A program made the position numbers and the translations under genes. Positions 20,545 through 63,852 of a stretch of DNA of 64,000 nt are shown here, piece after piece (position 1 is the stretch's first letter; each line of letters starts with the position of its first letter). The stretch is from IMG/VR virus record IMGVR_UViG_3300028569_002824, positions 1 to 64,000 of that record; one strand, 5' to 3'. The DNA is from a virus. Below the pieces are notes generated by a model. It saw only the letters and a program-made list of their open reading frames with translations. It did not search any database and was not told the DNA's origin.

Positions 20545-22215
<1,671 letters not shown>

Positions 22216-22550: not shown

Positions 22551-24434
22551 TCACTTGACAACTTCAAAATCTGCGTCTACGACGTCTTCGTCGGTTTTAG
22601 TTTGAGTAGTAGAGGATTCAGAAGAAGCAGCTTGATATGCAACAGATATTGCTTCTTGAATCTTTGATTGAAGTACGTCATGTGATGTCTTAATAAGATC
22701 AATATCATCACCTTTTAGTGCCTCTGAAACTTTTGAAGATGCATCTTTAATAGATGATTTTACATCCTCAGGAATTTTATCTCCGATGTCTGCTAGCTGT
22801 TTCTCGCTTTGATATATTAGATTATCAGCACTGTTACGAAGCTCAATAGCTTCTTTGGATTTACGATCTTCTTCAGCGTGAGCTTCAGCTTCCTTTTGCA
22901 TGCGTTCAACCTCTTCGTTACTCAACCCACTAGATCCAGTAATTGATATTTTTTGCTCTTTTCCACTACCGAGATCCTTGGCCGACACACGTAAAATGCC
23001 ATTTGCATCAATATCAAACGTAACTTCAATTTGTGGAACTCCTCTAGGAGCTGAAGGAATGCCGTCCAAATGAAAGGTTCCGAGACTCTTGTTGTCTCTG
23101 CTGAGAGGACGCTCACCCTGAATTACCTTAATTTCAACACCAGGTTGGTTGTCAGCATAGGTAGAGAAAATGTTAGATTTTCTCGACGGAATAGTAGTGT
23201 TTCGTGGAATCATCGGTGTAGCAACTCCACCAGCTGTCTCTATAGCTAAAGTCAATGGGGTTACATCTAACAGCAGAACATCCTTTACGTCACCTCTGAG
23301 AACTCCACCTTGAACTGCAGCACCGATCGCTACAACTTCGTCAGGATTGACTCCTTTATTCGGCTCCTTGCCAATAAGATCACGAGCAGTATTAATAACT
23401 CTTGGCATGCGTGTCATCCCACCAACTAGTACGAGCTCGCTTATATCCCCAACATTTAATTTAGCGTCTTTAAGACAATCTCGTACAGGAACAGTCGTGC
23501 GTTCAAATAATCCATCGGTAATTTGCTCTAATTTAGATCTACTAAGTTTCTTTTGAATGTGCTTGGGTCCTGTTGAATCAGCAGTAATAAACGGTAAATT
23601 TATTTCGTACTCCTGTGCAGAAGAAAGTGCAATTTTAGCCTTTTCTCCTTCTTCTTTAATTCGTTGAATGGCATCTGATTGTGTGGATAAATTAATTCCA
23701 ACATCTGTCTGAAATTCTGAAATAATCCATTCGACTATTTTGTTGTCCCAGTCATCTCCACCCAAATGTGTATCACCATTCGTAGAAAGCACTTCAAACA
23801 CCCCTTCGTTAATTTCAAGAGCAGAAATATCAAAAGTGCCGCCACCCAAATCATAAACTACAATCTTTTCATCCTTTTTGGCGTCCAAGCCGTACGCCAA
23901 TGCTGCTGCAGTAGGTTCATTGATTATACGTTTTACGTCAAGCCCAGCAATTTTTCCTGCGTCTTTAGTAGCACTTCTTTGAGAGTCATTAAAGTAGGCT
24001 GGCACAGTGATGACAGCTTCTGTGACAGGTTCACCTAATTTAGCTTCTGCATCAGATTTAAGTTTAGACAAAATCATTGCTGATATTTCTGGTGGAGAAA
24101 ACACCTTATCTTCATCGTTGACTGTAACTTGAATGTGAGCGTCACCATTCGCTGCTCTAACAACTTTGTATGGAACCTTTTTAATCTCATCTGTTACTTC
24201 ATCAAATTTCATTCCCATGAATCGTTTGACAGAATATATTGTGTTAGATGGATTAGTAACGGCTTGTCTTTTAGCAGCCTGTCCAACAAGCCGCTCTCCA
24301 GCTTTTGTAAAAGCAACTACCGAGGGAGTAGTTCTTGCTCCTTCTGAGTTTTCCAACACTGATGGCTGATCCCCGTCAATTACTGCTACGCATGAATTTG
24401 TAGTACCTAAATCAATTCCGATAATTTTTCCCAT
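22551..24434 (-). CDS. dnaK: Chaperone DnaK (Hsp70)
   Basis: [33 protein letters not shown]. Confidence 0.99.
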
Positions 24435-35553: not shown

Positions 35554-36774
35554 TCAACGAATGAATTTTCGTTCAGTTGAACCGAATGGAGTAAAGTAAC
35601 TCTCATAAAATTTCATGAGATTTGTATCATCGTCTAACCAAAACTGTTCTGCGTGTTGTCTTGATTTTTTGCAAAAGTCTAAATATGTCGTTTGATTTTT
35701 GAGTGCGGTTTTAATGCAGTCAATAAATTCATTTGCAGTAGAGTATTTTAAGAACGCATCTTTATATGTAACCATGTCCGGACATACGCACGGAATGCCT
35801 AATGCACCAGACTCAATTAATTTGATGTTTGATTTGCATCGATTGAAAGTGTTGTCTTGAAGACAAGCAAATGTCAATTGAGCACCAGAATTTGCCATAG
35901 TATTAGGAAAGTTGGTAAGCTGAACCCAAGGAAAAAATTTCATTTCCTTTCTGTCTATATACGGTTTAAGTGCTTGTGGAAAAGATCCGTAAAAATGCCA
36001 CTCAAATTCAGTCTTGGTTTTAATTATATGAGAGGTAACTGATGAAAAATCATCTTGCTGGTTATTTCGGTTAGCTACATCAACATGGGTTCCTGAAGCA
36101 AAAATAGCAATTACAGGTTTCTTTTTGTTTTTTTCAAATTTTTTATTTAGATCTCCAAGATTATAGTATCGATCGAACCACCACTTCATTAGATAATTTG
36201 GAATAGCTGTCACGTTTTTATTTCCGGATTGACTAATCATATAATCCCTAAAATATTCAGAGGTTACTGTGATTTCATCCATAACAGATAGTATCTCTCT
36301 GATTGAACTTTGTATAACGGGATCTATAAACGCTTCTCTGTTTTTGTTATATAATGGAATATCCTCAGCAAACACCACATCGTCTACTTCATATATAAGC
36401 TTTAGTGGTCGCTTGGTTTTTAATTGATGTAAGAATTTAACAAAATCCCTCTGATACGGTGTTGCTTGCCTTTGGAATTTGACAGCTTCAACTGTTTGAT
36501 AAAAATTAGGATCTAATATCATAGCAGTAGATTCGGTTATGACTGCTTTGCTGTTCAAATTTAACAACAAATTTGGAGCAATACATCTATAATAACCACA
36601 ACCGCCATGATCTGCTAAATAATTCATTGCTCGTTTAAGTCCTGAACCAGGAATGCTCGGAGGTTGATGAGAACTAGGAACAACATACGAATGTCCTCCG
36701 ATTGGGGATCCTAATGGAATTCCAACAGGGGCTCCTATAACTTGCTTTATTCCATACTGGACAATTGAATTCAT
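35554..36774 (-). CDS. GT-B fold glycosyltransferase
   Basis: GCGYYRC, YEVDD, FNRCKSNIKLIESGALGIP; TAAATA 5 nt upstream. Confidence 0.75.
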   Translation of the reverse strand: MNSIVQYGIKQVIGAPVGIPLGSPIGGHSYVVPSSHQPPSIPGSGLKRAMNYLADHGGCGYYRCIAPNLLLNLNSKAVITESTAMILDPNFYQTVEAVKFQRQATPYQRDFVKFLHQLKTKRPLKLIYEVDDVVFAEDIPLYNKNREAFIDPVIQSSIREILSVMDEITVTSEYFRDYMISQSGNKNVTAIPNYLMKWWFDRYYNLGDLNKKFEKNKKKPVIAIFASGTHVDVANRNNQQDDFSSVTSHIIKTKTEFEWHFYGSFPQALKPYIDRKEMKFFPWVQLTNFPNTMANSGAQLTFACLQDNTFNRCKSNIKLIESGALGIPCVCPDMVTYKDAFLKYSTANEFIDCIKTALKNQTTYLDFCKKSRQHAEQFWLDDDTNLMKFYESYFTPFGSTERKFIR

Positions 36775-40817: not shown

Positions 40818-41550
40818 ATTTTAGATATAATTCATCTTTAATTGAAGGAAACACCTTATACTGATGAATGATATTGTTGTCTATAGATGTTTTGATTTGT
40901 TGTGCCATATTATTTACATTGCAAGAATCAAGAAAGCACTTCGCGCTGTCAAAATACACCAGTTTATTCACGATTGCTTGCTCTACTATGGGGTAGTTTA
41001 TTTTGCCTAAAATCACAGACATTTCCTTTACCATTAATTGCATAAATTCTAACAATTCAGAGTAATTTGACAAATATATACCAGCATTTACAACAATTTT
41101 ATCTAACATCGAATTTAATACAACTGGTCCATAACATATGTTAATCCAAGTTGAATTACAATCACAGTGTCTAAAGTTTTTATCTTCTAAAAATAATGTA
41201 AATTGACCAGTAAACAAGTCAAATGGATTACATTTAAAATAAATATCACTTATATCACACAACAATATAGTATGATTTTGCAATACGTCTTTATTTTTCC
41301 TTAAAAACAAATAAGAATAAATGACTTTATTATTATATGGAGAGGTGTTGAAAGTAACTTTATATTCTGAACAATCAATACAATTAACGTTTTGACTACG
41401 TAAAAAGGTCAATAATTTTTCGTCTACACTTTTATATAAAACGGTAATTAGATCATTATAATGTTCTCTTAAACTCTTAAACGTAACTTTAATTCCGCTT
41501 AAGTCGTAATTGGTCCCCTCTATATAGCAAATACAATTAGTATTTTTCAT
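40807..41550 (-). CDS. Putative GT-A glycosyltransferase
   Basis: LLCDISDIYFKCNPF, VNAG, EQAIVN, HQY. Confidence 0.65.
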   Translation of the reverse strand: MKNTNCICYIEGTNYDLSGIKVTFKSLREHYNDLITVLYKSVDEKLLTFLRSQNVNCIDCSEYKVTFNTSPYNNKVIYSYLFLRKNKDVLQNHTILLCDISDIYFKCNPFDLFTGQFTLFLEDKNFRHCDCNSTWINICYGPVVLNSMLDKIVVNAGIYLSNYSELLEFMQLMVKEMSVILGKINYPIVEQAIVNKLVYFDSAKCFLDSCNVNNMAQQIKTSIDNNIIHQYKVFPSIKDELYLKYDT

Positions 41551-42332
41551 CCGTTTTTTATTGCCTTTAATGTTTGTGTAACAAAATCCTTACTTACATC
41601 GGGGATTTGGTTTGTGAACTTTCCCCATTTTTTAATAAAATATGCAGCTGAATTATTCACATTCTGGTTATACTGATCTTTATTTGTAATAGTAGAAAGA
41701 GCAGAACTTGTTGGAATGCTTTCTAAATAATCAATGCTATTATGAATGTCTGGAAAATACCAAAATGGAGGCATTACATTTTTGCTAATTAAATTGTATG
41801 CAACGTCAATGTGTTCGAATGCATTCTGATATTGTTCGTCAAACACACAATCTTCTTCGTCAATAAGATTTAAATTAAAATACATCAACCCTCCTTGAGG
41901 ATTATGATACAAATCTACTCCTAGTGTCGTTGAATACATGCACGTCAATTTAAGATTGGTTTGATACTTTTTTGTTATTTCAACAGGACCAAAACATAAA
42001 TGAGGGATATTAGATATGTCAGAAACATCTATGTATTGTTGAAACACATCAGGGTTTTTAACGAACACGTCATCTTCAAACAAAAAGAGATCTGTACATC
42101 TGTGTTCGATTAGACATCGAATCGCACGGTTTTTTGTTTTTGATACTCCCAATTGTGAGTCGTTAAATATTACAGTGTCTGCATCAGACGTCAACGCATA
42201 CCGATTAACACCATCATTTACTACTACTGAGTGGTATGAAGTATTCTTAGGCAAGGATTCAATTACCTTTCGGTAAAATTCTGGTCTGTTATACGTAATA
42301 ACTCCTATTCCAATTTTACGAGAATTTACCAT
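41547..42332 (-). CDS. GT2-family glycosyltransferase
   Basis: GVITYNR, VVNDG, KN, FEDD, FEHID. Confidence 0.8.
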   Translation of the reverse strand: MVNSRKIGIGVITYNRPEFYRKVIESLPKNTSYHSVVVNDGVNRYALTSDADTVIFNDSQLGVSKTKNRAIRCLIEHRCTDLFLFEDDVFVKNPDVFQQYIDVSDISNIPHLCFGPVEITKKYQTNLKLTCMYSTTLGVDLYHNPQGGLMYFNLNLIDEEDCVFDEQYQNAFEHIDVAYNLISKNVMPPFWYFPDIHNSIDYLESIPTSSALSTITNKDQYNQNVNNSAAYFIKKWGKFTNQIPDVSKDFVTQTLKAIKNG

Positions 42333-43135
42333 GTTGTTTGTTGTTTTAAATATTTAATTACTTCTTGTTCTGTTGCTTCAGGAACAGCAAAAATATCTTG
42401 TCCATGCAACGCTTTGAATGTGTTTCTGGCATCATTAAAGCGCTCTTGAAACGTATTAACATCTCTTACTGTTGAATCCGTGGTGAAATCACTTAAATTG
42501 TGTAACATATTCCAACTTCCGTAAATATCAGCAAACCACCAAAACGGAGTAGTGAACCCATGCTTAGCCGCCCTATAAGTTAACTCGAGATGGTCACCGT
42601 GTCCTTTATTAAATAAATGGTGATGCAATCCTATTGTTTGTAATGCGCTTCTTGTGTAAAACGTAAACGCTCCTAAAATATTTTTAGTTAACACAATTTT
42701 AATATTGTCTTTATATTCAACAATTTTTCTATAAATTGGCTTCAAATCTGAGTTTAAATTTTCTCTTTGTGAAAATCCAAAATTGAAATGTTGAATGCCA
42801 GTTGCAAGTGATGTGTTTATATAGTGTTCAAATATGTTTGAGTCGGTTATCATTACATCATCTTCTAAAGTGAAAATATAATCACAACCTAAATCCAGCA
42901 AACAAGTCATTAATGTGTTTTTGCTAGCTCCTACGTGCATATTATCCACGTTTTGGATAATATTTACATCTCTATAATCGTTGGTTAATTTTAATCCATC
43001 ATTAACAACAACTAACTCGTCAATACAAGAAAGAGTGGGCAAAACAGAATTAATACATTTTTCAAAAAAATGTTCTCTGTTACACGTTACAATTCCAACG
43101 CCGATCTTTTTTCGTTTAGATATAATATTACTCAT
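42326..43135 (-). CDS. GT2-family glycosyltransferase (paralog of the adjacent gene)
   Basis: GIVTCNR, VVNDG, LEDD, PFWWFADI (versus PFWYFPDI). Confidence 0.8.
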   Translation of the reverse strand: MSNIISKRKKIGVGIVTCNREHFFEKCINSVLPTLSCIDELVVVNDGLKLTNDYRDVNIIQNVDNMHVGASKNTLMTCLLDLGCDYIFTLEDDVMITDSNIFEHYINTSLATGIQHFNFGFSQRENLNSDLKPIYRKIVEYKDNIKIVLTKNILGAFTFYTRSALQTIGLHHHLFNKGHGDHLELTYRAAKHGFTTPFWWFADIYGSWNMLHNLSDFTTDSTVRDVNTFQERFNDARNTFKALHGQDIFAVPEATEQEVIKYLKQQTTW

Positions 43136-49384: not shown

Positions 49385-50155
49385 TCAAACTTTTAAAGCT
49401 AAATCCCAAATTAGTAAATGAAGACGAGGACTAAAATTAACATGCATGGCTTTTGCATATTCTGCTACAGCTTGTGCTCTGTCAATATGTTCTTGTCTTG
49501 AACCACAGCATGGCATAAACCACACTCGTTGGAGAGGTACGTTTATTCCCTCGTAATCATTAATATATTTTCTCCAAATTTCCTCTATGTCTCGATCTGA
49601 GGTTATGACAAACTTGAATCCCGAATTGTGATCAACATGCCATCTAAGCACTTCTGGTTTATATGTTTTTTCTTCTGGATCGCCATTTGTAGTCAACTTT
49701 GGAGATGTAGTAAAAGTTGCGCAAAATTCTGTTACCCAACGTTCATCAGGCTGAAGAGTAGCATTAGTTTCAAAGTCAATTCGTGGATTGAATCCGTATT
49801 TTTCGTTAAAGGCTTCTATAAACTTAATAAGCTGCTTTTGCTGAATTAAAGGTTCGCCTCCCGTCAACTTGAAAATTGCTCTGTTTCTTAGATGTTCTAC
49901 ATAATTCTTTTCTTCCATCATCTGGAAGATCTCCGCAAAAGTCATTTTATTTTTAACTGACCAGGAAATAAAAGAATCACAACCGTTCGGACTGTTTTCT
50001 GATGCGAACCCCTTGCATGTAAGGTTGCACATCGACATTCTCATGAAAACTGAAGGTTGTCCGACAAATTCTCCTTCCCCCTCCACAGTGTAGAACGTTT
50101 TATCATCTGATAGAATTAACGTTTCTGTTTGTATATCAATATTATTAGTTTTCAT
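49385..50155 (-). CDS. queE: 7-carboxy-7-deazaguanine synthase (radical SAM)
   Basis: FYTVEGEG..G.PSVF.R, CNLTC-x-CDS, LTGGEP, ETN, SPK, KFV, PRLH. Confidence 0.88.
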   Translation of the reverse strand: MKTNNIDIQTETLILSDDKTFYTVEGEGEFVGQPSVFMRMSMCNLTCKGFASENSPNGCDSFISWSVKNKMTFAEIFQMMEEKNYVEHLRNRAIFKLTGGEPLIQQKQLIKFIEAFNEKYGFNPRIDFETNATLQPDERWVTEFCATFTTSPKLTTNGDPEEKTYKPEVLRWHVDHNSGFKFVITSDRDIEEIWRKYINDYEGINVPLQRVWFMPCCGSRQEHIDRAQAVAEYAKAMHVNFSPRLHLLIWDLALKV

Positions 50156-50615
50156 CTTCTTCGTCTTTTGGTTCTGCGTAAATTGCTGAATTTTGTTCAT
50201 GTTCCCAAACCTCCACTTTAGATACCCAACATCTATGTCTGGTTTCTTCGTTACATTCGAGAAATAATCTTGTTGTATTAAAACACCACTCTGCTGTTTT
50301 CTCAATTCCTACACTACTCATTACTCTAAGATCACAACCTCCTTTTTTGTGTAGATCTTGAAATTCAGCTATTAGTGGATCGTCTGCAGCTATACACAAC
50401 GTGTGATCAAATTGGTGTTGAAGTAGTTGCTTTAGTTCTTTCAAACCACCAAAATTTACTGCCCAATTGCGGTGATCTAATTCAGAACATTCAAACCAAA
50501 ATTTTGCCATCAAGCGGTATCCGTGAACAAATCTACAGTGTGTCCCATCAGCCTTCCATTGCCTAAACGCACACGATCCCAATTCTATTACTTTAGTTGA
50601 TGTATAAGTCCCCAT
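50145..50615 (-). CDS. queD: 6-carboxy-tetrahydropterin synthase
   Basis: HCRFVHGY, NFG.LK, FDH, EVWE...NSA. Confidence 0.88.
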   Translation of the reverse strand: MGTYTSTKVIELGSCAFRQWKADGTHCRFVHGYRLMAKFWFECSELDHRNWAVNFGGLKELKQLLQHQFDHTLCIAADDPLIAEFQDLHKKGGCDLRVMSSVGIEKTAEWCFNTTRLFLECNEETRHRCWVSKVEVWEHEQNSAIYAEPKDEEDEN

Positions 50616-55696: not shown

Positions 55697-56128
55697 TTAG
55701 CGCTTGACTGCGTTGATCATGAAGCTCTTGAGCTTCTCAGAAATAGATAGAAGTGTTTCTGCGACGCTTACGATGTCAACTTTTGTTCTGGATGAAATTC
55801 CGTCAAATGGCGTTCCTGGTCTATCTAATGAAGACACAAGGCTCTGTAGGGAAGTACCTTCTAAGCCGTTGATTTTTTCAGCAAAATCTTCTAGTTGAAA
55901 TATATAATCTTTTAATGTTGCGCCTGTTGGAGCAGTTGCTTCTGAAGTTGTTCCTTCAGTTTCTCCTTCTGCTTGCTCTCCTGGAGCTTGAGGAATTGGT
56001 TCCACATCATCAAAATCTTCAGGCATTGGAACAGTCGAACCGCCACTTTCTGCTGGAGCTTCTTCAGTCTCTTTGTTGGCTTCGTCTTCCTTCAAGTATA
56101 CACTATTATAAAGTTCTTCAAATCTCAT
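55697..56128 (-). CDS. Acidic late protein
   Basis: TAAATA 5 nt upstream; MRFEELYNSVYLKE leader. Confidence 0.7.
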   Translation of the reverse strand: MRFEELYNSVYLKEDEANKETEEAPAESGGSTVPMPEDFDDVEPIPQAPGEQAEGETEGTTSEATAPTGATLKDYIFQLEDFAEKINGLEGTSLQSLVSSLDRPGTPFDGISSRTKVDIVSVAETLLSISEKLKSFMINAVKR

Positions 56129-56138
56129 AATTATATTT

Positions 56139-56516
56139 ATGATTTTACTGGAGTTTTTCTATAGTATGTGTTGGATAAATCTGATTATGTTAACGTGGTT
56201 TATTACTGACGCGGCATATTCCTACTTAACGTTGTTTAATTGTCTTACTAAACTTCGGTTACGTTTTGCTATTTATTTGATCACAAATGAAGACGGTACC
56301 TTTATAACATTTTTAAACCACGAGAGTACCGACCCTAACATAACTCCGCTGCATAGATTTTTATTGAAACTAATAACGTGTCCCTTGTGTTTAGCGATGT
56401 GGCTTTCAATTACGTGTTGCTTATTGTGGTTAGACGTTGGAAATATAGCTCCACTTTATATTATATCTATTGTAACATTTTTGCTTCTGCGGAAATTGAT
56501 TCAAATACTTCTGTAA
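56139..56516 (+). CDS. Putative membrane protein
   Basis: Hydrophobic segments; LITCPLCLAMW motif. Confidence 0.6.
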   Translation: MILLEFFYSMCWINLIMLTWFITDAAYSYLTLFNCLTKLRLRFAIYLITNEDGTFITFLNHESTDPNITPLHRFLLKLITCPLCLAMWLSITCCLLWLDVGNIAPLYIISIVTFLLLRKLIQILL

Positions 56517-57267: not shown

Positions 57268-57488
57268 TAATTAGAGGATACATTATCTATAATAAAAAGC
57301 TCCCCATTTTGACCAAGTTCCTTTAATATGCCAAACATTTTATTGCCTTCCCACAACCATTTAATACTATCACCATGCTCGAATCTCAGCGATTTATCGA
57401 GGTATATACTACCTCCTTCGTCATATTTTTCCAAATCGAGATAAAACCGATTGCCTTCTTTGTAAATAAAATTTGTTAAATTAATCAT
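57267..57488 (-). CDS. Hypothetical protein
   Basis: Overlapping-operon ORF. Confidence 0.55.
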   Translation of the reverse strand: MINLTNFIYKEGNRFYLDLEKYDEGGSIYLDKSLRFEHGDSIKWLWEGNKMFGILKELGQNGELFIIDNVSSN

Positions 57489-57927
57489 TCGTTTGTGTAT
57501 TGTAATTTGCTAACCATGCTGAAAGCTGAGTTTTTTTTGATTTTGGATATCTAAATTTGTAGCCTCCCCAGCTCTTTGTGTCAACGTATTTAGTCCAAAG
57601 GGTTTTTGCTATGATATCAACCCGGTTCTCAATATCAAATTGCCTTTCAGGAGAGATGTTTCTGTCTGCTCCTGTATGATAACCTAACCACTTTTTTTGT
57701 TGAACGGCAACGTGATGAGCTAACTCATGAAAAAACACGAACATCATCATAATCCTTTGTTGTTTATTATTAATAAAAATATTACCTGTATCGAAATTAT
57801 ATGAACCATCAACACGTGTTGATTGATTGTTAAAATATATTTTATTTACATTATGTTCTAATGCAATAAGACTCATTAAAAATCTTATTTGTTTTTTTGG
57901 AATTTTTGAGTCAATAAAAAGTTTCAT
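57481..57927 (-). CDS. HExxH metallopeptidase-like protein (ImmA/IrrE-like)
   Basis: IFINN...FFHELAH...E..VD. Confidence 0.6.
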   Translation of the reverse strand: MKLFIDSKIPKKQIRFLMSLIALEHNVNKIYFNNQSTRVDGSYNFDTGNIFINNKQQRIMMMFVFFHELAHHVAVQQKKWLGYHTGADRNISPERQFDIENRVDIIAKTLWTKYVDTKSWGGYKFRYPKSKKTQLSAWLANYNTQTND

Positions 57928-57940
57928 AATAGACAGTTAA

Positions 57941-58156
57941 TTACGTAGCTTCATTTTTATTTTGTGTTTGTAAAATCAATAACTCAGCAAGCGCGTCCTC
58001 GAATGATACGTGACGAATACTATTAGTGCCAACCGACTTTGAAATTGTGTGGGAAGCAGGATCAATTTCTCTTACGATATTATACAGTTGTGTATTGACC
58101 TGTCGGGCCAATGTATCAGAATTTGGATCCTTTATTATACAACTCCTAAAATTCAT
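57941..58156 (-). CDS. Hypothetical protein
   Basis: 71-aa ORF in the operon. Confidence 0.5.
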   Translation of the reverse strand: MNFRSCIIKDPNSDTLARQVNTQLYNIVREIDPASHTISKSVGTNSIRHVSFEDALAELLILQTQNKNEAT

Positions 58157-58157
58157 A

Positions 58158-58565
58158 CTATTTCACTTTAAAATATACAGCAACAATTTGTATTATAATA
58201 TTTAATGCAAACATAATAACCGATCCATACAAAGCCAACGTAGCTTTACTTTTGGTTTTATGGTGATCCGACATGTCTATTTCTCTCTCAATTGTGGATA
58301 TTCGCTTATTAAACCCACTATCTTCATAAAGCTCTACATCTAAATCCTCCTGGATGGACTTTAAACTCAAATTTATCTGCGTATTCCATATCTTTGCTTC
58401 AGCTTCAGATACAGCAATAGTTTGTTTAAGTTCAGCAGTTTCCTTATTAAGATTTTGGAGAACCAAATTATGATCATTTAATTGTTGTAAAACAAGCATT
58501 TGATACTTGGACCACCCATTGCCTTCGTAACCGTTACCTACAGAGTTATCAATGTTTTGATTCAT
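58158..58565 (-). CDS. Coiled-coil protein with a C-terminal transmembrane helix
   Basis: Heptad region, then LALYGSVIMFALNIIIQIVAVYF. Confidence 0.7.
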   Translation of the reverse strand: MNQNIDNSVGNGYEGNGWSKYQMLVLQQLNDHNLVLQNLNKETAELKQTIAVSEAEAKIWNTQINLSLKSIQEDLDVELYEDSGFNKRISTIEREIDMSDHHKTKSKATLALYGSVIMFALNIIIQIVAVYFKVK

Positions 58566-58567
58566 GA

Positions 58568-59467
58568 TTACGTATGTAAATGCACAAAGCCACTTTCAGA
58601 ATTTGGAGACCACTCGTATTTGATTCCGATTTTTTCTGTAATGTCTCTTAATACTCCAATATAATGTGCAACAATTCCTTCTTCTTTGACCGAAGAAATT
58701 GCAAATCGGTTATAAAATATTTCACCGGTCTTTCTTTGGCACTGGAGAAGCACATCACAATTGTCTCCAGATCCTAAACAGCGTTTTAGGGTAGACATCG
58801 CTCTTGATTGATGTGATTCATCAGTAACAATATCCAAAAATGATTTTCCTAAAGCCTCTTCTGTAATATATCCTGTAATTAGTTCGAATGATTTGTTGGC
58901 ATATACAATTGTTGGAGTGCCGTGTTGCAATTCCATTACTACAATACCGTCCGTAGAAGAATTTACTGCATTTTGCAATAATTTAAAATTATATCCGTGG
59001 TTATTTTTAAATTGTGAAATATCAGACGCAACACCAATAACTCGTTCTTCGCGATCATCACATAAGGAAAACCTCCAAACTAAACGAACGTGATTTCCGT
59101 CCATAGAAATCCACCTATTTATGAATGCGTTATTGCCCAAAAAACGCGTAATTTTTCCTGATTTAATTTCATTGAACTTATTCTTAGACTCTTCTACATC
59201 TTCTGCGCTTATAAAGTCCCATAACGATTTACCAATTAAATCAGCTCTAGTATATCCCAAGATAGTAAATGCAGCATCGCTAATTTTAATAATTGTAGCG
59301 TCTTTGTCCAAAAAAACAATAATGTCCGGTGATGCAGCAAAAATTAAAGCTAGCTGACTTTCTAATTCAGTCAAATATGCTGACAAATTGTTTAAACTAC
59401 CTTGTCTGGAATGTATAGCCTCTAGTAGCTTTTCATTTTCTGTAATCAATTGGCTTTTTGTGATCAT
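58568..59467 (-). CDS. Tandem PAS-PAS sensor protein with no output domain
   Basis: PAS1: IFAASPDII..ILGYT..DLIGKS..DF..ED..GVASDIS; PAS2: DGIVV..IVYANKSFELITGY..EEALGK..RKTGE..YIGVLRDITE. Confidence 0.88.
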   Translation of the reverse strand: MITKSQLITENEKLLEAIHSRQGSLNNLSAYLTELESQLALIFAASPDIIVFLDKDATIIKISDAAFTILGYTRADLIGKSLWDFISAEDVEESKNKFNEIKSGKITRFLGNNAFINRWISMDGNHVRLVWRFSLCDDREERVIGVASDISQFKNNHGYNFKLLQNAVNSSTDGIVVMELQHGTPTIVYANKSFELITGYITEEALGKSFLDIVTDESHQSRAMSTLKRCLGSGDNCDVLLQCQRKTGEIFYNRFAISSVKEEGIVAHYIGVLRDITEKIGIKYEWSPNSESGFVHLHT

Positions 59468-59496
59468 ATTATGTTAATATGTGAGTTGGCTATTTA

Positions 59497-60111
59497 TTAA
59501 CACGACTCAATTAGTTTTGCTTCTGATTCTCTTCTATCAAGCAATCCATCAAGTCCTTTACCCAACCAAATTCGTTTCATGCTTCTAAATTCTTTAGCTA
59601 TCTTTTTATAGTCTTTTTTAGGAATCAAATTTTTAATATTAACCATCTCTCTTCTTGAATCTCCTTTAAGACTCGTGCCTCTATTAAACACTAAAGAAAC
59701 AACTGCACCATATGCATCAGGATGCAAGTCAGACAACCCAGGAAAGGTTTTTTCCGCAAGCTTACTAAATTTAGGCCACGTGAGAGTATTAAAAATAGTT
59801 AATGCTTGTTCCCAATTTATATTAATTCCGAAAGCTCTTAATTTTTTAGTATACTCTTTTCCACGCGCTCCTGTTTTTCCAGAAGCTTCTTGAATCTGGG
59901 ATAGTTGATTAGATGGCAAGAAGTCAAAAATTTTAGCAAGTTCCGTCTCTGTATAGTAAGCACAGTCGACACCAATTGCTATCGTTGGTCCAGAAGCTCC
60001 TCCGGGCCATGTAAACTTGGAAAGATATTTTTCGTAATACGATTTGCCTCCTCCTACCTCATACTGGAGAAGCAAGCTTAATGTGTTGTTGGACGGTTTA
60101 CTTGAGTTCAT
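59497..60111 (-). CDS. Endolysin, lysozyme-like (pesticin-type muramidase)
   Basis: EVGG..WPGGASGPTIAIGVD, AVVSLVFNRG, GLLDRRESEA. Confidence 0.8.
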   Translation of the reverse strand: MNSSKPSNNTLSLLLQYEVGGGKSYYEKYLSKFTWPGGASGPTIAIGVDCAYYTETELAKIFDFLPSNQLSQIQEASGKTGARGKEYTKKLRAFGININWEQALTIFNTLTWPKFSKLAEKTFPGLSDLHPDAYGAVVSLVFNRGTSLKGDSRREMVNIKNLIPKKDYKKIAKEFRSMKRIWLGKGLDGLLDRRESEAKLIESC

Positions 60112-60526
60112 AATCGTCTTCTTTAGCGTTTGTGTGAATAACTGTTATGTTTTCTGTTTTTTCGGTGCGAGTCATTCCCTCCAATGATGCACTCGAAGCA
60201 CTGTTGTATTTTAAATCAACAACTGCTTGAGCACCAACGTACGCAGCAATAATAATAGAAAGTATTTCAATTGTTTTTGAAAACATTGTGACAAAACCGC
60301 TCACAAATTCAGGTTTAGCAGGAATTAAAAACATCATGCCAATACTTGCGAAGTAAAAAAATGCAAGAATAATTACCGAAGTCATTACAATATAAAACTT
60401 TTTAGACTCTAAATGATTAGTAGATTTCAAGCGATCATATTTGTTAGAAGCTGTATTTGGAGGTACACGATCACTGCTTAAAAACGAGACACCATTCATT
60501 ACAGCGTTTTTTATTAAAGCTATCAT
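60098..60526 (-). CDS. Putative holin with 2 TM helices (start at ATG 60526)
   Basis: SKKF + TM1, TM2 IIIAAYVGAQAVVD; overlaps the endolysin start. Confidence 0.65.
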   Translation of the reverse strand: MIALIKNAVMNGVSFLSSDRVPPNTASNKYDRLKSTNHLESKKFYIVMTSVIILAFFYFASIGMMFLIPAKPEFVSGFVTMFSKTIEILSIIIAAYVGAQAVVDLKYNSASSASLEGMTRTEKTENITVIHTNAKEDDYELK

Positions 60527-60627
60527 AATAGTGAAACAAAAGCAGCTCCAGTTAAAAATCCTAAAGTAAATACAATCTTTGTTGGGTGATTCCAAAACAA
60601 TTCTGTTATTTTCTCTTTAATATCCAT
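60523..60627 (-). CDS. Unannotated 34-aa membrane peptide MDIKEKITELFWNHPTKIVFTLGFLTGAAFVSLL
   Basis: ATG 4 nt after the upstream stop; its TGA overlaps the holin ATG (ATGA). Confidence 0.6.
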   Translation of the reverse strand: MDIKEKITELFWNHPTKIVFTLGFLTGAAFVSLL

Positions 60628-60631
60628 AATT

Positions 60632-61252
60632 TTATAAAATTCCTTTAATTCGCAAATACGTCGCTCCGCCTATTGCTATTAACAACCCCACAATAATTAA
60701 GTTTCTCTGGAGAAGAGCTAGATCTTTTTCGACTAACTTTTTTTGCATTATATTGAGATCGTTTATCATTTTATCTCTATTTTCAGCTTGTCTGATTAAT
60801 TCTTCATCAACCTGCTTTTTAGCATCAATCAGTCCGATAGTATCTCTCTGAATTTGAGCAAACGTTTCTTTATCCTTTAATAATTGTTGGTACTCTTCAG
60901 TATTAACAACTACGACAGTATCATGTCTGTATCTTTCTGGAATTACAATCATTCGTTGTTTATTAACAGGAACTGAGTCAAACTTACTACCGCTCGATAC
61001 GGTGCTTATGTGTATGTCAATTTTTTTATAAACAGCTTCTATAGGAATTCTGTTTTTTGGGGGTTTTACAATTCTCGTAGCTTCTGTAATATATTTGTCC
61101 GTTAAATCTATCCTCGCTACTTCTAAAGAATCTTTAGACGCATATACAACTTTCGACAAAGCTTCGGACTGTTTTTCAGTGTATACAGTACAGCTAGATG
61201 TTATTAACAACACCATTATTGCCATGCAAAGAGTCTTGTGATATTTACTCAT
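60632..61252 (-). CDS. Lipoprotein with a C-terminal TM helix (unimolecular-spanin-like topology)
   Basis: Signal ending LLITSS-C21; coiled coil; LIIVGLLIAIGGATYL; TAAGTA 6 nt upstream. Confidence 0.65.
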   Translation of the reverse strand: MSKYHKTLCMAIMVLLITSSCTVYTEKQSEALSKVVYASKDSLEVARIDLTDKYITEATRIVKPPKNRIPIEAVYKKIDIHISTVSSGSKFDSVPVNKQRMIVIPERYRHDTVVVVNTEEYQQLLKDKETFAQIQRDTIGLIDAKKQVDEELIRQAENRDKMINDLNIMQKKLVEKDLALLQRNLIIVGLLIAIGGATYLRIKGIL

Positions 61253-61306
61253 TACAAATACTTATGCTAAACTGTAAATTTAACTTAGATGAAACTTAAA
61301 ACCACG

Positions 61307-61554: not shown

Positions 61555-61996
61555 TGGTGGAGGTGAGGGGATTCGAACCCCTGTTTTTATAATCTCTGCT
61601 AAAAGATACTACATGCTTTAATGAATTTGACATTTGTTGACTAAAGGCTGTCTTGGCTCATTGACCATGCTTTTTAAGTCTGCCTGTATGTGTGAATAAA
61701 GATCACATACTACCTATGACTAGTTTTACCGCGTTAGTCATCTCACGCAAGAACCTCTGCGTTTCAAAATACTTTTAGAGGATCCAGTATTAGGCTCTTA
61801 AGCTTCGAGAGAATAAGCTTCATCAGCGGTAACGAGAAACTCGCTAGCGTTGTTAAAGATATACTCCGCCTCAGCAAAGAGGTCAGAATTATCAAGTTCT
61901 GCATTTAGGTTTTTAATAGATGTTTAAAGAGGCCAACTATTATCCTCTACATGCACTTTTAGTTTTTAATTATAAATCGAAAACCAGTACACCCCC
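61555..61996 (-). ncRNA. ssrA: tmRNA (442 nt)
   Basis: 5' GGGGGTG pairs with 3' CACCTCC-ACCA (G3-U alanine determinant); T-arm AGGGGTTCGAATCCCCT; internal tag ORF at 61902-61798. Confidence 0.92.
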
Positions 61997-63159: not shown

Positions 63160-63852
63160 TCAGGGTTGCAACTTATTATAACCAAACAATGTAAAATCGT
63201 CGTGGTAAAGATCATTAATCAGTTTTATTGATTCGCTGTCAAGAAAATTAAAATAGTTAGGAGATTCCCTTTGATGTTTTACTGGGTGACTTTGATTCCA
63301 AAAACGATTAAATTTGGAAAACACACACTCAAGTTGTCGCAAGCTATCTGTTAATGCTTCGGTTTTTAATACAATAAACCGATCATCGATTGTGTTTTGT
63401 TGATTTAATAAAAATACATATTGAGGGAAAACATGATATGCTCCCCAATTTGGTGTTTTAAGCAATATACGTAATTGTTTGTTTATTACGTCAACTGAAT
63501 CTGTAGGAACCGCACTTTTTCTCCAAAATAACTCACTAATAGCTCGATTGTATGGGTTTCTAACAACACTTAAAAATAGATCTACCTCGTCAATTTTTAC
63601 GTCAAGTTGCTTTTCGTGGGTAATGATTGTATTAAATGACTGATGCTGTGAATGAATTTTTTTTAAATTACAATCTGAAAACTCACGTCTTTCTGAAAGG
63701 GGCGTTCCGGCCGGAGTAAATAAAGTCTCTGTGTATTTGCCTGTACTTCTTATGTGAGACTCAATAGAAGTTCCTCCTGTTTTTGGAATATGTATAAATA
63801 ATATTTTATTAAACTTAACATCAGAGTCAGCAATTGACGTATAACAAGGCAT
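63160..63852 (-). CDS. Sulfotransferase family 2 protein
   Basis: FIHIPKTGGTS (PAPS loop), VRNPYNRAIS, YHDDFTLFGY. Confidence 0.85.
   Translation of the reverse strand: MPCYTSIADSDVKFNKILFIHIPKTGGTSIESHIRSTGKYTETLFTPAGTPLSERREFSDCNLKKIHSQHQSFNTIITHEKQLDVKIDEVDLFLSVVRNPYNRAISELFWRKSAVPTDSVDVINKQLRILLKTPNWGAYHVFPQYVFLLNQQNTIDDRFIVLKTEALTDSLRQLECVFSKFNRFWNQSHPVKHQRESPNYFNFLDSESIKLINDLYHDDFTLFGYNKLQP

Follow-up and report, generated by a model that had tools for sequence, protein, structure and literature searches.

What does a sensory protein without an output domain do in the lysis cassette of a bacteriophage? The question is raised by a stretch of viral DNA of 64,000 nucleotides (nt), hereafter the window, which comprises the first 64 kb of the 124,473-bp virus record IMGVR_UViG_3300028569_002824 (CheckV completeness estimate 58%). 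Towards the end of the window, a tight run of genes on the minus strand joins predicted lysis genes to a gene for a tandem PAS protein and a gene for a membrane-anchored helical protein, here called ccTM. A first-pass annotation, made from the letters of the sequence, had read this run as a lysis cassette extended by a sensor and a membrane partner. Comparison with relatives indicates that the pair of PAS protein and ccTM stays with lysis genes even where these have been exchanged, and that the second PAS domain descends from a LOV photosensor domain, the active site of which is degenerate in the window copy. We tentatively read the pair as an add-on that tunes the triggering of the holin.

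All six open reading frames (ORFs) of the proposed run were recovered, tightly spaced between 61252 and 58158. They are listed below in the order of transcription, together with the motif in front of them (aa, amino acids; TM, transmembrane).

61259-61264, minus strand: TAAGTA motif, located 6 nt ahead of the first start codon (ATG) of the cassette
60632-61252, minus strand: lipoprotein-like protein of 206 aa with a C-terminal TM segment and an architecture resembling a unimolecular spanin (u-spanin)
60523-60627, minus strand: single-TM peptide of 34 aa, from ORF and hydropathy
60098-60526 (ORF as listed, 60098-60595), minus strand: holin-like protein of 142 aa with two TM segments, from ORF, re-read start and hydropathy
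59497-60111, minus strand: soluble endolysin of 204 aa, T4-lysozyme type, from Pfam and PHROG
58568-59467, minus strand: helix-PAS-PAS protein of 299 aa, predicted cytoplasmic, from Pfam, AlphaFold2 (AF2), PDB and NCBIfam
58158-58565, minus strand: ccTM, tail-anchored all-helical protein of 135 aa, from ORF, hydropathy and AF2

The identity of the run as a lysis cassette is borne out by the family match of the endolysin and by the TM architecture of the holin-like and spanin-like proteins. Hydropathy analysis agrees with the topology given in the first-pass annotation for all cassette proteins, and neither the endolysin nor the PAS protein contains a TM segment. The holin-like and endolysin genes overlap by 14 nt, 29 nt separate the endolysin gene from the PAS gene, and the gap between the PAS and ccTM genes is 2 nt.

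Pfam recognizes two PAS stretches in the 299-aa protein (PAS_9, E 1.9e-28) and no domain of the kinase, GGDEF or HTH type, in agreement with the PAS-PAS architecture without output domain described at the outset. Searching 5.8 billion proteins returned 126 relatives at E <= 0.001; all 120 listed are 186-322 aa long, 39-99% identical to the window protein, and encoded on contigs of up to 232 kb. No fused forms were present among the near-length relatives listed, and a search for longer relatives gave 69 matches, all of them generic multidomain PAS sensors of at most 36% identity. The AF2 model (mean pLDDT 76) consists of a helix (residues 4-45), a first PAS domain (PAS-A, ~49-149), a second (PAS-B) and a short beta-type tail. 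Invariant residues occur at both ends, in the helix and in the C-terminal tail, across 20 sequences of 38-71% identity. Foldseek matched the model to tandem-PAS proteins, with HIF/ARNT and CLOCK/BMAL1 heterodimers among the best.

Judging from its nearest relatives, PAS-B is LOV-derived. In a phmmer search against the PDB, short LOV proteins of Pseudomonas ranked top with the window protein as query (E 4e-17, residues 155-285), and for a relative with the canonical motif, found at locus L004 (see below), the best E value was 1e-26 and 60 of 60 listed matches were LOV photoreceptors. The best specific NCBIfam model for PAS-B is YtvA_fam (NF052652), which scores 63.9 bits (E 1.6e-17) on the window protein and 123.7 bits (E 8.9e-36) on the L004 protein. 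The alignments cover model positions 1-120, i.e. the LOV part, and both scores stay below the 250-bit cut-off because the phage proteins, unlike YtvA, have no STAS output domain. In an alignment of 20 relatives (A1), many carry the sequence G-x-N-C-R-F/I/M-L-Q in the second PAS domain, which we take to be the signature of LOV blue-light domains. As PAS-B is a LOV derivative, the ancestral signal was most likely blue light, in place of the redox or nutrient signals initially envisaged.

The best matches of PAS-B are short LOV proteins (PpSB1-LOV and PpSB2-LOV of Pseudomonas putida, and relatives; PDB 3sw1, 7a6p, 7yx0, 7r5n), which are likewise effector-less: the phage ORF ends at 58568, and the gene behind it is a separate one. 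Relatives share with them the GxNCRFLQ sequence, the F-helix Arg/Lys and both Asn residues. The phage protein differs in adding a long N-terminal helix and a full PAS-A, so that it is not a single LOV core, and in ending with a conserved C-terminal tail of beta type where the short LOV proteins have a J-alpha helix. Further differences are the lack of the canonical last-strand Gln throughout the family, the lack of the Cys and most flavin contacts in the window copy, and the fact that a phage encodes the protein, in a pair with a membrane protein. Family members came exclusively from phage-like and metagenome contigs. No PAS relatives with the N-terminal motifs of the family were detected in 185,579 prokaryote species genomes (one each), in a scan that is blind to ordinary cellular LOV proteins.

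The question of whether the PAS gene belongs with the lysis genes was addressed through its neighbours in relatives. Alignment-based scans gave 5 viral-contig loci and 25 metagenome loci, 30 in total, and a single-protein scan of viral contigs gave none; neighbouring genes were assigned from a BLASTP table. The 30 loci are not all independent, as L003/L029, L009/L015 and L002/L030 look like the same phage sampled twice. The first-pass annotation had proposed synteny with lysis genes as a check, which the PAS gene passed: an endolysin gene lies directly upstream at 21 of the 23 loci with upstream sequence (the other seven begin in the PAS gene), and a ccTM homologue follows directly at all 23 loci with downstream sequence (the other seven end in or at the PAS gene). 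The two loci lacking an endolysin directly upstream, L019 and L028, both belong to a divergent clade, and the latter breaks off at the PAS gene and says nothing on the neighbours of the pair. Upstream of the endolysin, a holin-like homologue was found at 18 of 19 loci with enough sequence, paired with three endolysin types; the exception is L024, where other small TM proteins take its place.

The lysis genes beside the pair vary. The endolysin is of the T4-lysozyme type (Phage_lysozyme) at 12 loci and of the Peptidase_M15_4 type, with or without PG_binding_1, at 9 loci. Replaced endolysins within one phage clade are seen at L004 (4539-5045), L005 (6499-6975), L006 (2138-2830) and L019 (7269-7763, minus strand), the last being of a third type, Glyco_hydro_108 with PG_binding_3. 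L019 is moreover rearranged. Here, the PAS-LOV and ccTM genes come after capsid and protease genes, in convergent orientation to the Glyco_hydro_108 endolysin and a holin homologue on the opposite strand, and the replication block is not nearby. Overall, the pair keeps its place by lysis genes with any of three unrelated endolysin types and either of two holin types, and in one rearranged genome as well. Scanning with the alignment of the divergent clade (A4) produced no new loci, which leaves L019 as the sole rearranged example.

Scanning with ccTM as the anchor added one more locus, L042, with the gene order spanin-like, holin-like, endolysin, 62-aa ORF, ccTM. The 62-aa ORF (1895-2083) aligns to residues 8-37 of the PAS protein, within the N-terminal helix (hhalign probability 90.8%, E 1.2e-6). 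At L006 (2800-3315) and L027 (1191-1700), the PAS gene is reduced to a PAS-A-only form of ~170 aa. Despite these truncations ccTM is kept at L006, L027 and L042, and it is present at 24 of 24 loci with sequence at that position. The element that stays constant is thus ccTM, and the PAS-LOV protein is a variable add-on, the N-terminal helix of which is lost last.

The state of the LOV site was tallied over 113 rows, namely the window protein and 112 of the 120 listed relatives with at least 280 aa; 8 shorter rows were dropped, and the window protein's own cluster is among the rows (P0001). The classes are:

NC[RK]xxQ, photoactive Cys kept: 46 of 113 rows
N[GAT][RK]xxQ: 19 of 113 rows
other: 48 of 113 rows

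At this site the canonical L004 protein reads GKNCRFLQ and the Cys-less L005 protein GKNAKFLQ. In the window protein, residues 207-214 read G-K-S-F-L-D-I-V and do not form a LOV motif with an adduct Cys; the Cys is replaced by Phe, Arg by Leu and Gln by Val, and an Asn by Cys. The flavin-contact columns were mapped via HMMER alignments of the window and L004 proteins to LOV proteins in the PDB. Besides the Arg and Gln of the motif, the family majority in these columns is R/K228, N243 and N253; the window protein has L211, V214, K228, C243 and N253, so that only N253 is kept and K228 is conservative.

A FastTree phylogeny was built without the motif columns and rooted, as an assumption, on the divergent clade, which has five rows and ~40% identity. 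Under that rooting the canonical motif, present in 5 of 5 outgroup rows and in basal ingroup rows, is ancestral, and the tree implies at least 4-6 changes to the "other" class. The window protein falls into a well-supported clade of 10 rows, all of which have Phe at the Cys position. Selection was assessed as the ratio of nonsynonymous to synonymous substitution rates (dN/dS) against L007, with a protein identity of 91%. The PAS gene gave 0.053 as a whole, 0.040 in its N-terminal half and 0.068 in its LOV-like half, compared with 0.073 for ccTM, 0.055 for the endolysin and 0.042 for the holin-like gene. The window PAS gene, including its degenerate LOV half, is under strong purifying selection. 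A decaying pseudogene was also considered for the window PAS copy and is ruled out by values of 0.05-0.07.

The membrane partner ccTM carries its TM segment at residues 107-135. In the family, this C-terminal segment is followed by 1-4 residues, and the N-terminal part holds the invariant block G17 W18 S19, Y21 Q22, V25 L26 Q27, L29, D31 H32 (GWS-YQ--VLQ-L-DH; alignment A2). As no signal sequence is present, the helical part is predicted to face the cytoplasm, where the PAS protein is predicted to reside as well. The AF2 model shows two long helices, for which Foldseek returned 0 matches in BFVD at E <= 0.001. With a profile search, 243 relatives were obtained at E <= 0.001, and the 120 listed measure 131-151 aa and have no precomputed Pfam domain; Atlas look-alikes are viral hypotheticals and DUF2951 (0.93), the latter a lead only. 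Complex prediction for the PAS protein (A1) and ccTM (A2) gave a score of 0.00 with the partner fold uncertain, a result that counts neither way on binding.

XhlA is an accessory membrane protein that acts with the holin XhlB in the xhlA-xhlB-xlyA lysis cassette of PBSX. ccTM is similar to it in having a helical or coiled-coil N-terminal domain, a single C-terminal TM segment and a location in a lysis cassette. At the sequence level the likeness is weak: the XhlA model PF10779 matches 4 of 21 ccTM family members (best E 0.085), and the ccTM homologue of L005 matches the "hemolysin" families phrog_1193 (8.6e-5) and phrog_937 (2.8e-4), as against 0.055 for the window protein. In the Pfam search, window ccTM had no match to PF10779 at E <= 1 (cut-off 34.7 bits). 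With 135 aa ccTM is also longer, has its own invariant N-terminal motif and shows no match above cut-off. We regard the relation to XhlA as an apparent resemblance, not as membership.

From these data we favour, with some reserve, a model in which the PAS protein and ccTM form a sensor with a membrane partner that tunes holin triggering, a module that would have been light-gated ancestrally and would be light-blind in the window phage. ccTM would be an inner-membrane protein whose helical domain lies in the cytoplasm, and would modulate the triggering of the holin, akin to XhlA with XhlB in PBSX or to the antiholins of T4. The PAS protein would dimerize via its N-terminal helix, dock either on ccTM or on the N-terminal, cytoplasmic end of the holin, and set the activity of its partner according to the signal. 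In the ~40% of the family with an intact NC[RK]xxQ motif, this signal would be blue light perceived via a flavin-Cys adduct; in the window lineage, the sensor would be light-blind and either constitutive or driven via PAS-A by some ligand. A bolder form of this model is doubtful at present: in a clade of freshwater jumbo phages, a LOV photoreceptor in the lysis cassette would gate holin triggering by light via its tail-anchored partner, the window copy being a light-blind conversion that is still under selection.

T4 itself times lysis via superinfection-sensing antiholins, of which RI senses in the periplasm and RIII is cytoplasmic. The pair would resemble RI and RIII as accessory proteins beside or on the holin that link a signal to lysis timing, and RIII is cytoplasmic like the PAS protein. 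The differences are a lack of Pfam or PHROG similarity, the periplasmic sensing of RI, whereas both proteins of the pair are predicted to face the cytoplasm, and the use of a PAS/LOV domain for the signal.

Several observations weigh against the favoured model of a holin-tuning sensor. The LOV site of the window copy is lost, both the Cys and most flavin contacts, and at the column of the last-strand Gln (273) the family has S, V, I, L and others, with Gln in 0 of 113 rows and one row having Q one position later, so that even the canonical members are atypical LOVs. Cys-less LOVs and LOVs without the active-site Gln can still signal, and for this reason the N[GAT][RK]xxQ members and the missing Gln are compatible with photosensing in the relatives. 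Flavin binding is not expected for the window copy because too many positions are lost, and neither light nor flavin can be presumed to play a role in the window phage. The PAS-LOV part is dispensable in some phages, as the PAS-A-only forms of L006 and L027 and the stub of L042 illustrate. Moreover, most relatives (L002-L018) are collinear with the window over the whole block between spanin-like and primase genes, so that adjacency could reflect a general T4-like gene order; L019 is the single case that separates lysis linkage from plain conserved gene order. A metalloprotease-like gene and a PD-(D/E)XK exonuclease gene share the unbroken tight run with the pair. Finally, the XhlA score of window ccTM in a search of its own genome is 9.4 bits (E 0.18), and 14 of 14 control genomes match alike.

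The main rival explanation, which we consider unlikely, is that the pair has nothing to do with lysis and is placed by conserved gene order, serving in host takeover, for instance as a membrane-tethered decoy that forms heterodimers with host PAS/LOV sensors, in line with the second idea of the first-pass annotation, or in phage gene regulation. The collinear stretch of L002-L018 and the protease-like and exonuclease genes in the same run would be expected if this were so, and PAS domains commonly heterodimerize, as in the HIF/ARNT and CLOCK/BMAL1 complexes retrieved by Foldseek. The module swaps and L019 weaken it: on at least three occasions unrelated genes took the place of adjacent lysis genes and the pair remained next to them, and at L019 the pair is found beside a holin and an endolysin, away from the replication genes. 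That ccTM outlives the loss of the PAS gene at L042 also misfits a PAS decoy as the point of the pair.

Less probable still is a role of ccTM alone, as a lysis effector or a second holin or antiholin, with the PAS protein as a decaying passenger that senses nothing. Repeated loss of the LOV motif on the tree, the existence of PAS-A-only forms and of the 62-aa stub, and the presence of ccTM at every locus with sequence at its position all fit such a scenario. It is at odds with the dN/dS of the window copy, low over the whole gene and in the LOV half, with the full NC[RK]xxQ motif in 46 members, and with the invariant residues of helix and tail across diverged sequences. That the pair senses membrane state or superinfection, in the manner of exclusion or lysis inhibition, instead of environmental light or redox is very improbable: T4-type phages do use superinfection-sensing antiholins and the window phage has T4-superfamily replication and packaging genes, but neither protein offers a periplasmic domain of the kind with which RI senses (the PAS protein lacks both a signal sequence and a TM segment, and in ccTM 3 residues follow the TM segment), and Pfam and PHROG revealed no similarity to known antiholin families.

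The remaining cassette proteins can be described as follows. The 206-aa protein has an N-terminal signal-like segment up to Cys21 and a TM segment at 184-203. The Cys is conserved in 5 of 5 homologues read, followed by T-V/I-Y-TEK, and the lipobox of the window copy is imperfect (T-S-S-C, with Thr at -3). No Pfam, PHROG or NCBIfam match was obtained; homologues sit before the holin-like gene in relatives. The spanin-like genes vary, from a single gene of 197-226 aa at some loci to a lipoprotein plus a second membrane protein at L004 and L006. By its architecture only, the 206-aa protein is u-spanin-like. Phage T1 gp11 is a unimolecular spanin, with which it shares a putative lipoprotein-type N-terminus with conserved Cys, a C-terminal TM segment and a location in the lysis cassette. 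As differences, there is no sequence match, the lipobox is imperfect and some relatives have a two-gene spanin-like pair instead.

The 34-aa peptide has its TM segment at 16-34. Homologous small TM ORFs occupy the same position at L007 and L025, and related TM ORFs of 35-43 aa are found there at L005, L010, L013, L017, L018 and L031. Its stop codon overlaps the ATG at 60526 (ATGA), which is the most likely start of the holin-like protein given this overlap and the length of the relatives (143 aa). The holin-like protein has TM-like segments at ~42-71 and 85-106, with both termini predicted to be cytoplasmic. As a small membrane protein with TM segments encoded beside an endolysin it is a predicted holin; it gave no match to the holin families described in Pfam, PHROG and NCBIfam, and its Atlas look-alikes are viral hypotheticals only, together with DUF6450 at 0.88 (a lead only). 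The endolysin belongs to Phage_lysozyme (PF00959; E 3.5e-6, 27.8 bits at a gathering cut-off of 22.3) and matches PHROG endolysin families with E 6.6e-4 and 8.5e-3.

The six genes at the heart of the run stand as first described, whereas its end at 58158 does not, as packed genes go on to 56467. The next two are:

57941-58156, minus strand: soluble 71-aa protein, possible further member of the unit, 1 nt after ccTM
57481-57927, minus strand: metalloprotease-like protein of 148 aa (DUF6782, E 1.1e-6; phrog_87 "metallo-protease", E 1.9e-7)

A gap of 13 nt separates these two genes, the second of which is of the DUF6782/M78 type, and overlapping genes follow up to that of the PD-(D/E)XK exonuclease, the last of the unbroken run, which ends at 56467. 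The 71-aa protein has no family match in Pfam, PHROG or NCBIfam. Weak homologues lie directly after ccTM at L002, L003, L006, L007 and L014 (34-40% identity; 64% in L007), and a similar ORF does so at L042. The 148-aa metalloprotease-like gene is kept downstream of the pair in most relatives, with a DUF932 gene inserted between ccTM and it in many.

The TAAGTA motif in front of the first cassette gene had been called late-type. The motif is real and in place in five of seven relatives (L007, L002, L003, L025 and L042; L005 has TAAATA and L012 neither), with diverging flanks. TAA[AG]TA occurs within 40 nt upstream of 16 of the 78 window genes, compared with ~2.6 expected from its density, and for 13 of the 78 its end falls 4-6 nt ahead of the start codon, compared with ~0.2 expected (our own arithmetic from the density). 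Examples of gene starts with the motif in this register are 303, 6294, 12535, 14733, 18174, 36774, 53312, 53369, 56128 and 61252. These 13 genes include tail sheath but also a glycosyltransferase and a gene adjoining primase, so that the label "late" is not justified. The fixed register suggests either a T4-late-like element of near-leaderless transcripts or a translation signal. The T4 late promoter sequence ATAAATA is not enriched overall in the window (28 copies against 29.7 expected), so that the enrichment is confined to the register-specific count.

The next downstream gene with the motif in register is 55697-56128, and by this criterion the pair would lie in one unit with the lysis genes and the four following genes. 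The second motif noted at first, TAAATA in the 29-nt gap between the endolysin and PAS genes, is not supported as a promoter: it lies 23 nt from the ATG, out of register, and the gap itself is absent in relatives, where the two genes abut or overlap, an arrangement in keeping with their co-expression. Sigma-70-like sites in the region number 34 against 29.4 expected, which is not above chance and makes individual sites leads only. Two have a perfect TTGACA with 16-nt spacing, at 61338-61311 (minus strand, TACGAT) before the first cassette gene and at 61538-61511 (minus strand, TACTAT) before a 67-aa gene. Just upstream of the cassette lies a full-length tmRNA gene (61555-61996, minus strand; Rfam RF00023, 98.5 bits at a gathering score of 47, E 3.7e-38, model positions 1-374), directly preceded by a near-consensus sigma-70-like site, TTGACA-16-TACAAT, at 62046-62019. 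ARAGORN found no tRNA in the window and also missed the tmRNA seen by Rfam.

The source phage is, by its gene content, an uncultured freshwater jumbo myophage of the T4 superfamily. The window codes for a tail sheath and a gp17-like large terminase, the best identities of which (at most 37%) are to Rhizobium and cyanobacterial T4-like phages, and for a replication set of family B DNA polymerase, UvsX, gp32-like single-stranded DNA-binding protein, SbcCD-like nuclease, replicative helicase and primase. The assignment draws on this gene set and on the record that holds L005, a complete relative of 217,182 bp with terminal repeats. Near-identical DNA is present in 20 listed sequencing runs, all of them DNA runs from lake, freshwater and river metagenomes; no RNA runs with the window sequence were among the runs listed. 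At least half of the sampled words were recovered in 5 runs from 5 studies, one of which is possibly the source sample. Against 50,697 phage records, blastn with the cassette region gave no match, tblastn with the PAS protein retrieved no more than 4 small "Listeria phage" records, at 26.5% identity and 39% query coverage, and tblastn with ccTM and its L005 homologue gave no match.

Among other genes of the window, a GroEL and a DnaK/Hsp70 homologue are both encoded, at 20545-22176 and 22551-24434 (both minus strand); GroEL matches phrog_5725 (E 1.6e-180), and the DnaK homologue is ~59% identical to DnaK-annotated regions of other records. Auxiliary genes at 63160-63852, 49385-50305, 35554-36774 and 41547-43135 (all minus strand) comprise a sulfotransferase (Pfam E 2.3e-11), a QueE-like radical SAM protein and glycosyltransferases, of which there are three.

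As the first-pass annotation had supposed, no PAS-controlled phage lysis system was found in the full-text literature searched, although most subscription journals fall outside its coverage and a description elsewhere is possible; within the same limits, no natural phage-encoded LOV protein was found. To our knowledge, the known controls of lysis timing respond to holin accumulation or to superinfection, as in lysis inhibition of T4, N4 and Vibrio phage. A PAS/LOV sensor in the lysis cassette, if confirmed, would be a new kind of input to lysis timing, and the canonical members of the family would be the first candidate phage-encoded photoreceptor. With intact LOV, Cys-less LOV, degenerate-site, PAS-A-only and stub forms, the family provides a natural series that could reveal how photoreceptors come to be lost or put to new use. 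Light-gated lysis, if true, would be the first case of a natural photoreceptor that controls a step in the life cycle of a phage. It would allow bursts to be timed to the day-night cycle or to depth, and the canonical members would offer a molecular handle on diel patterns of viral lysis in surface waters.

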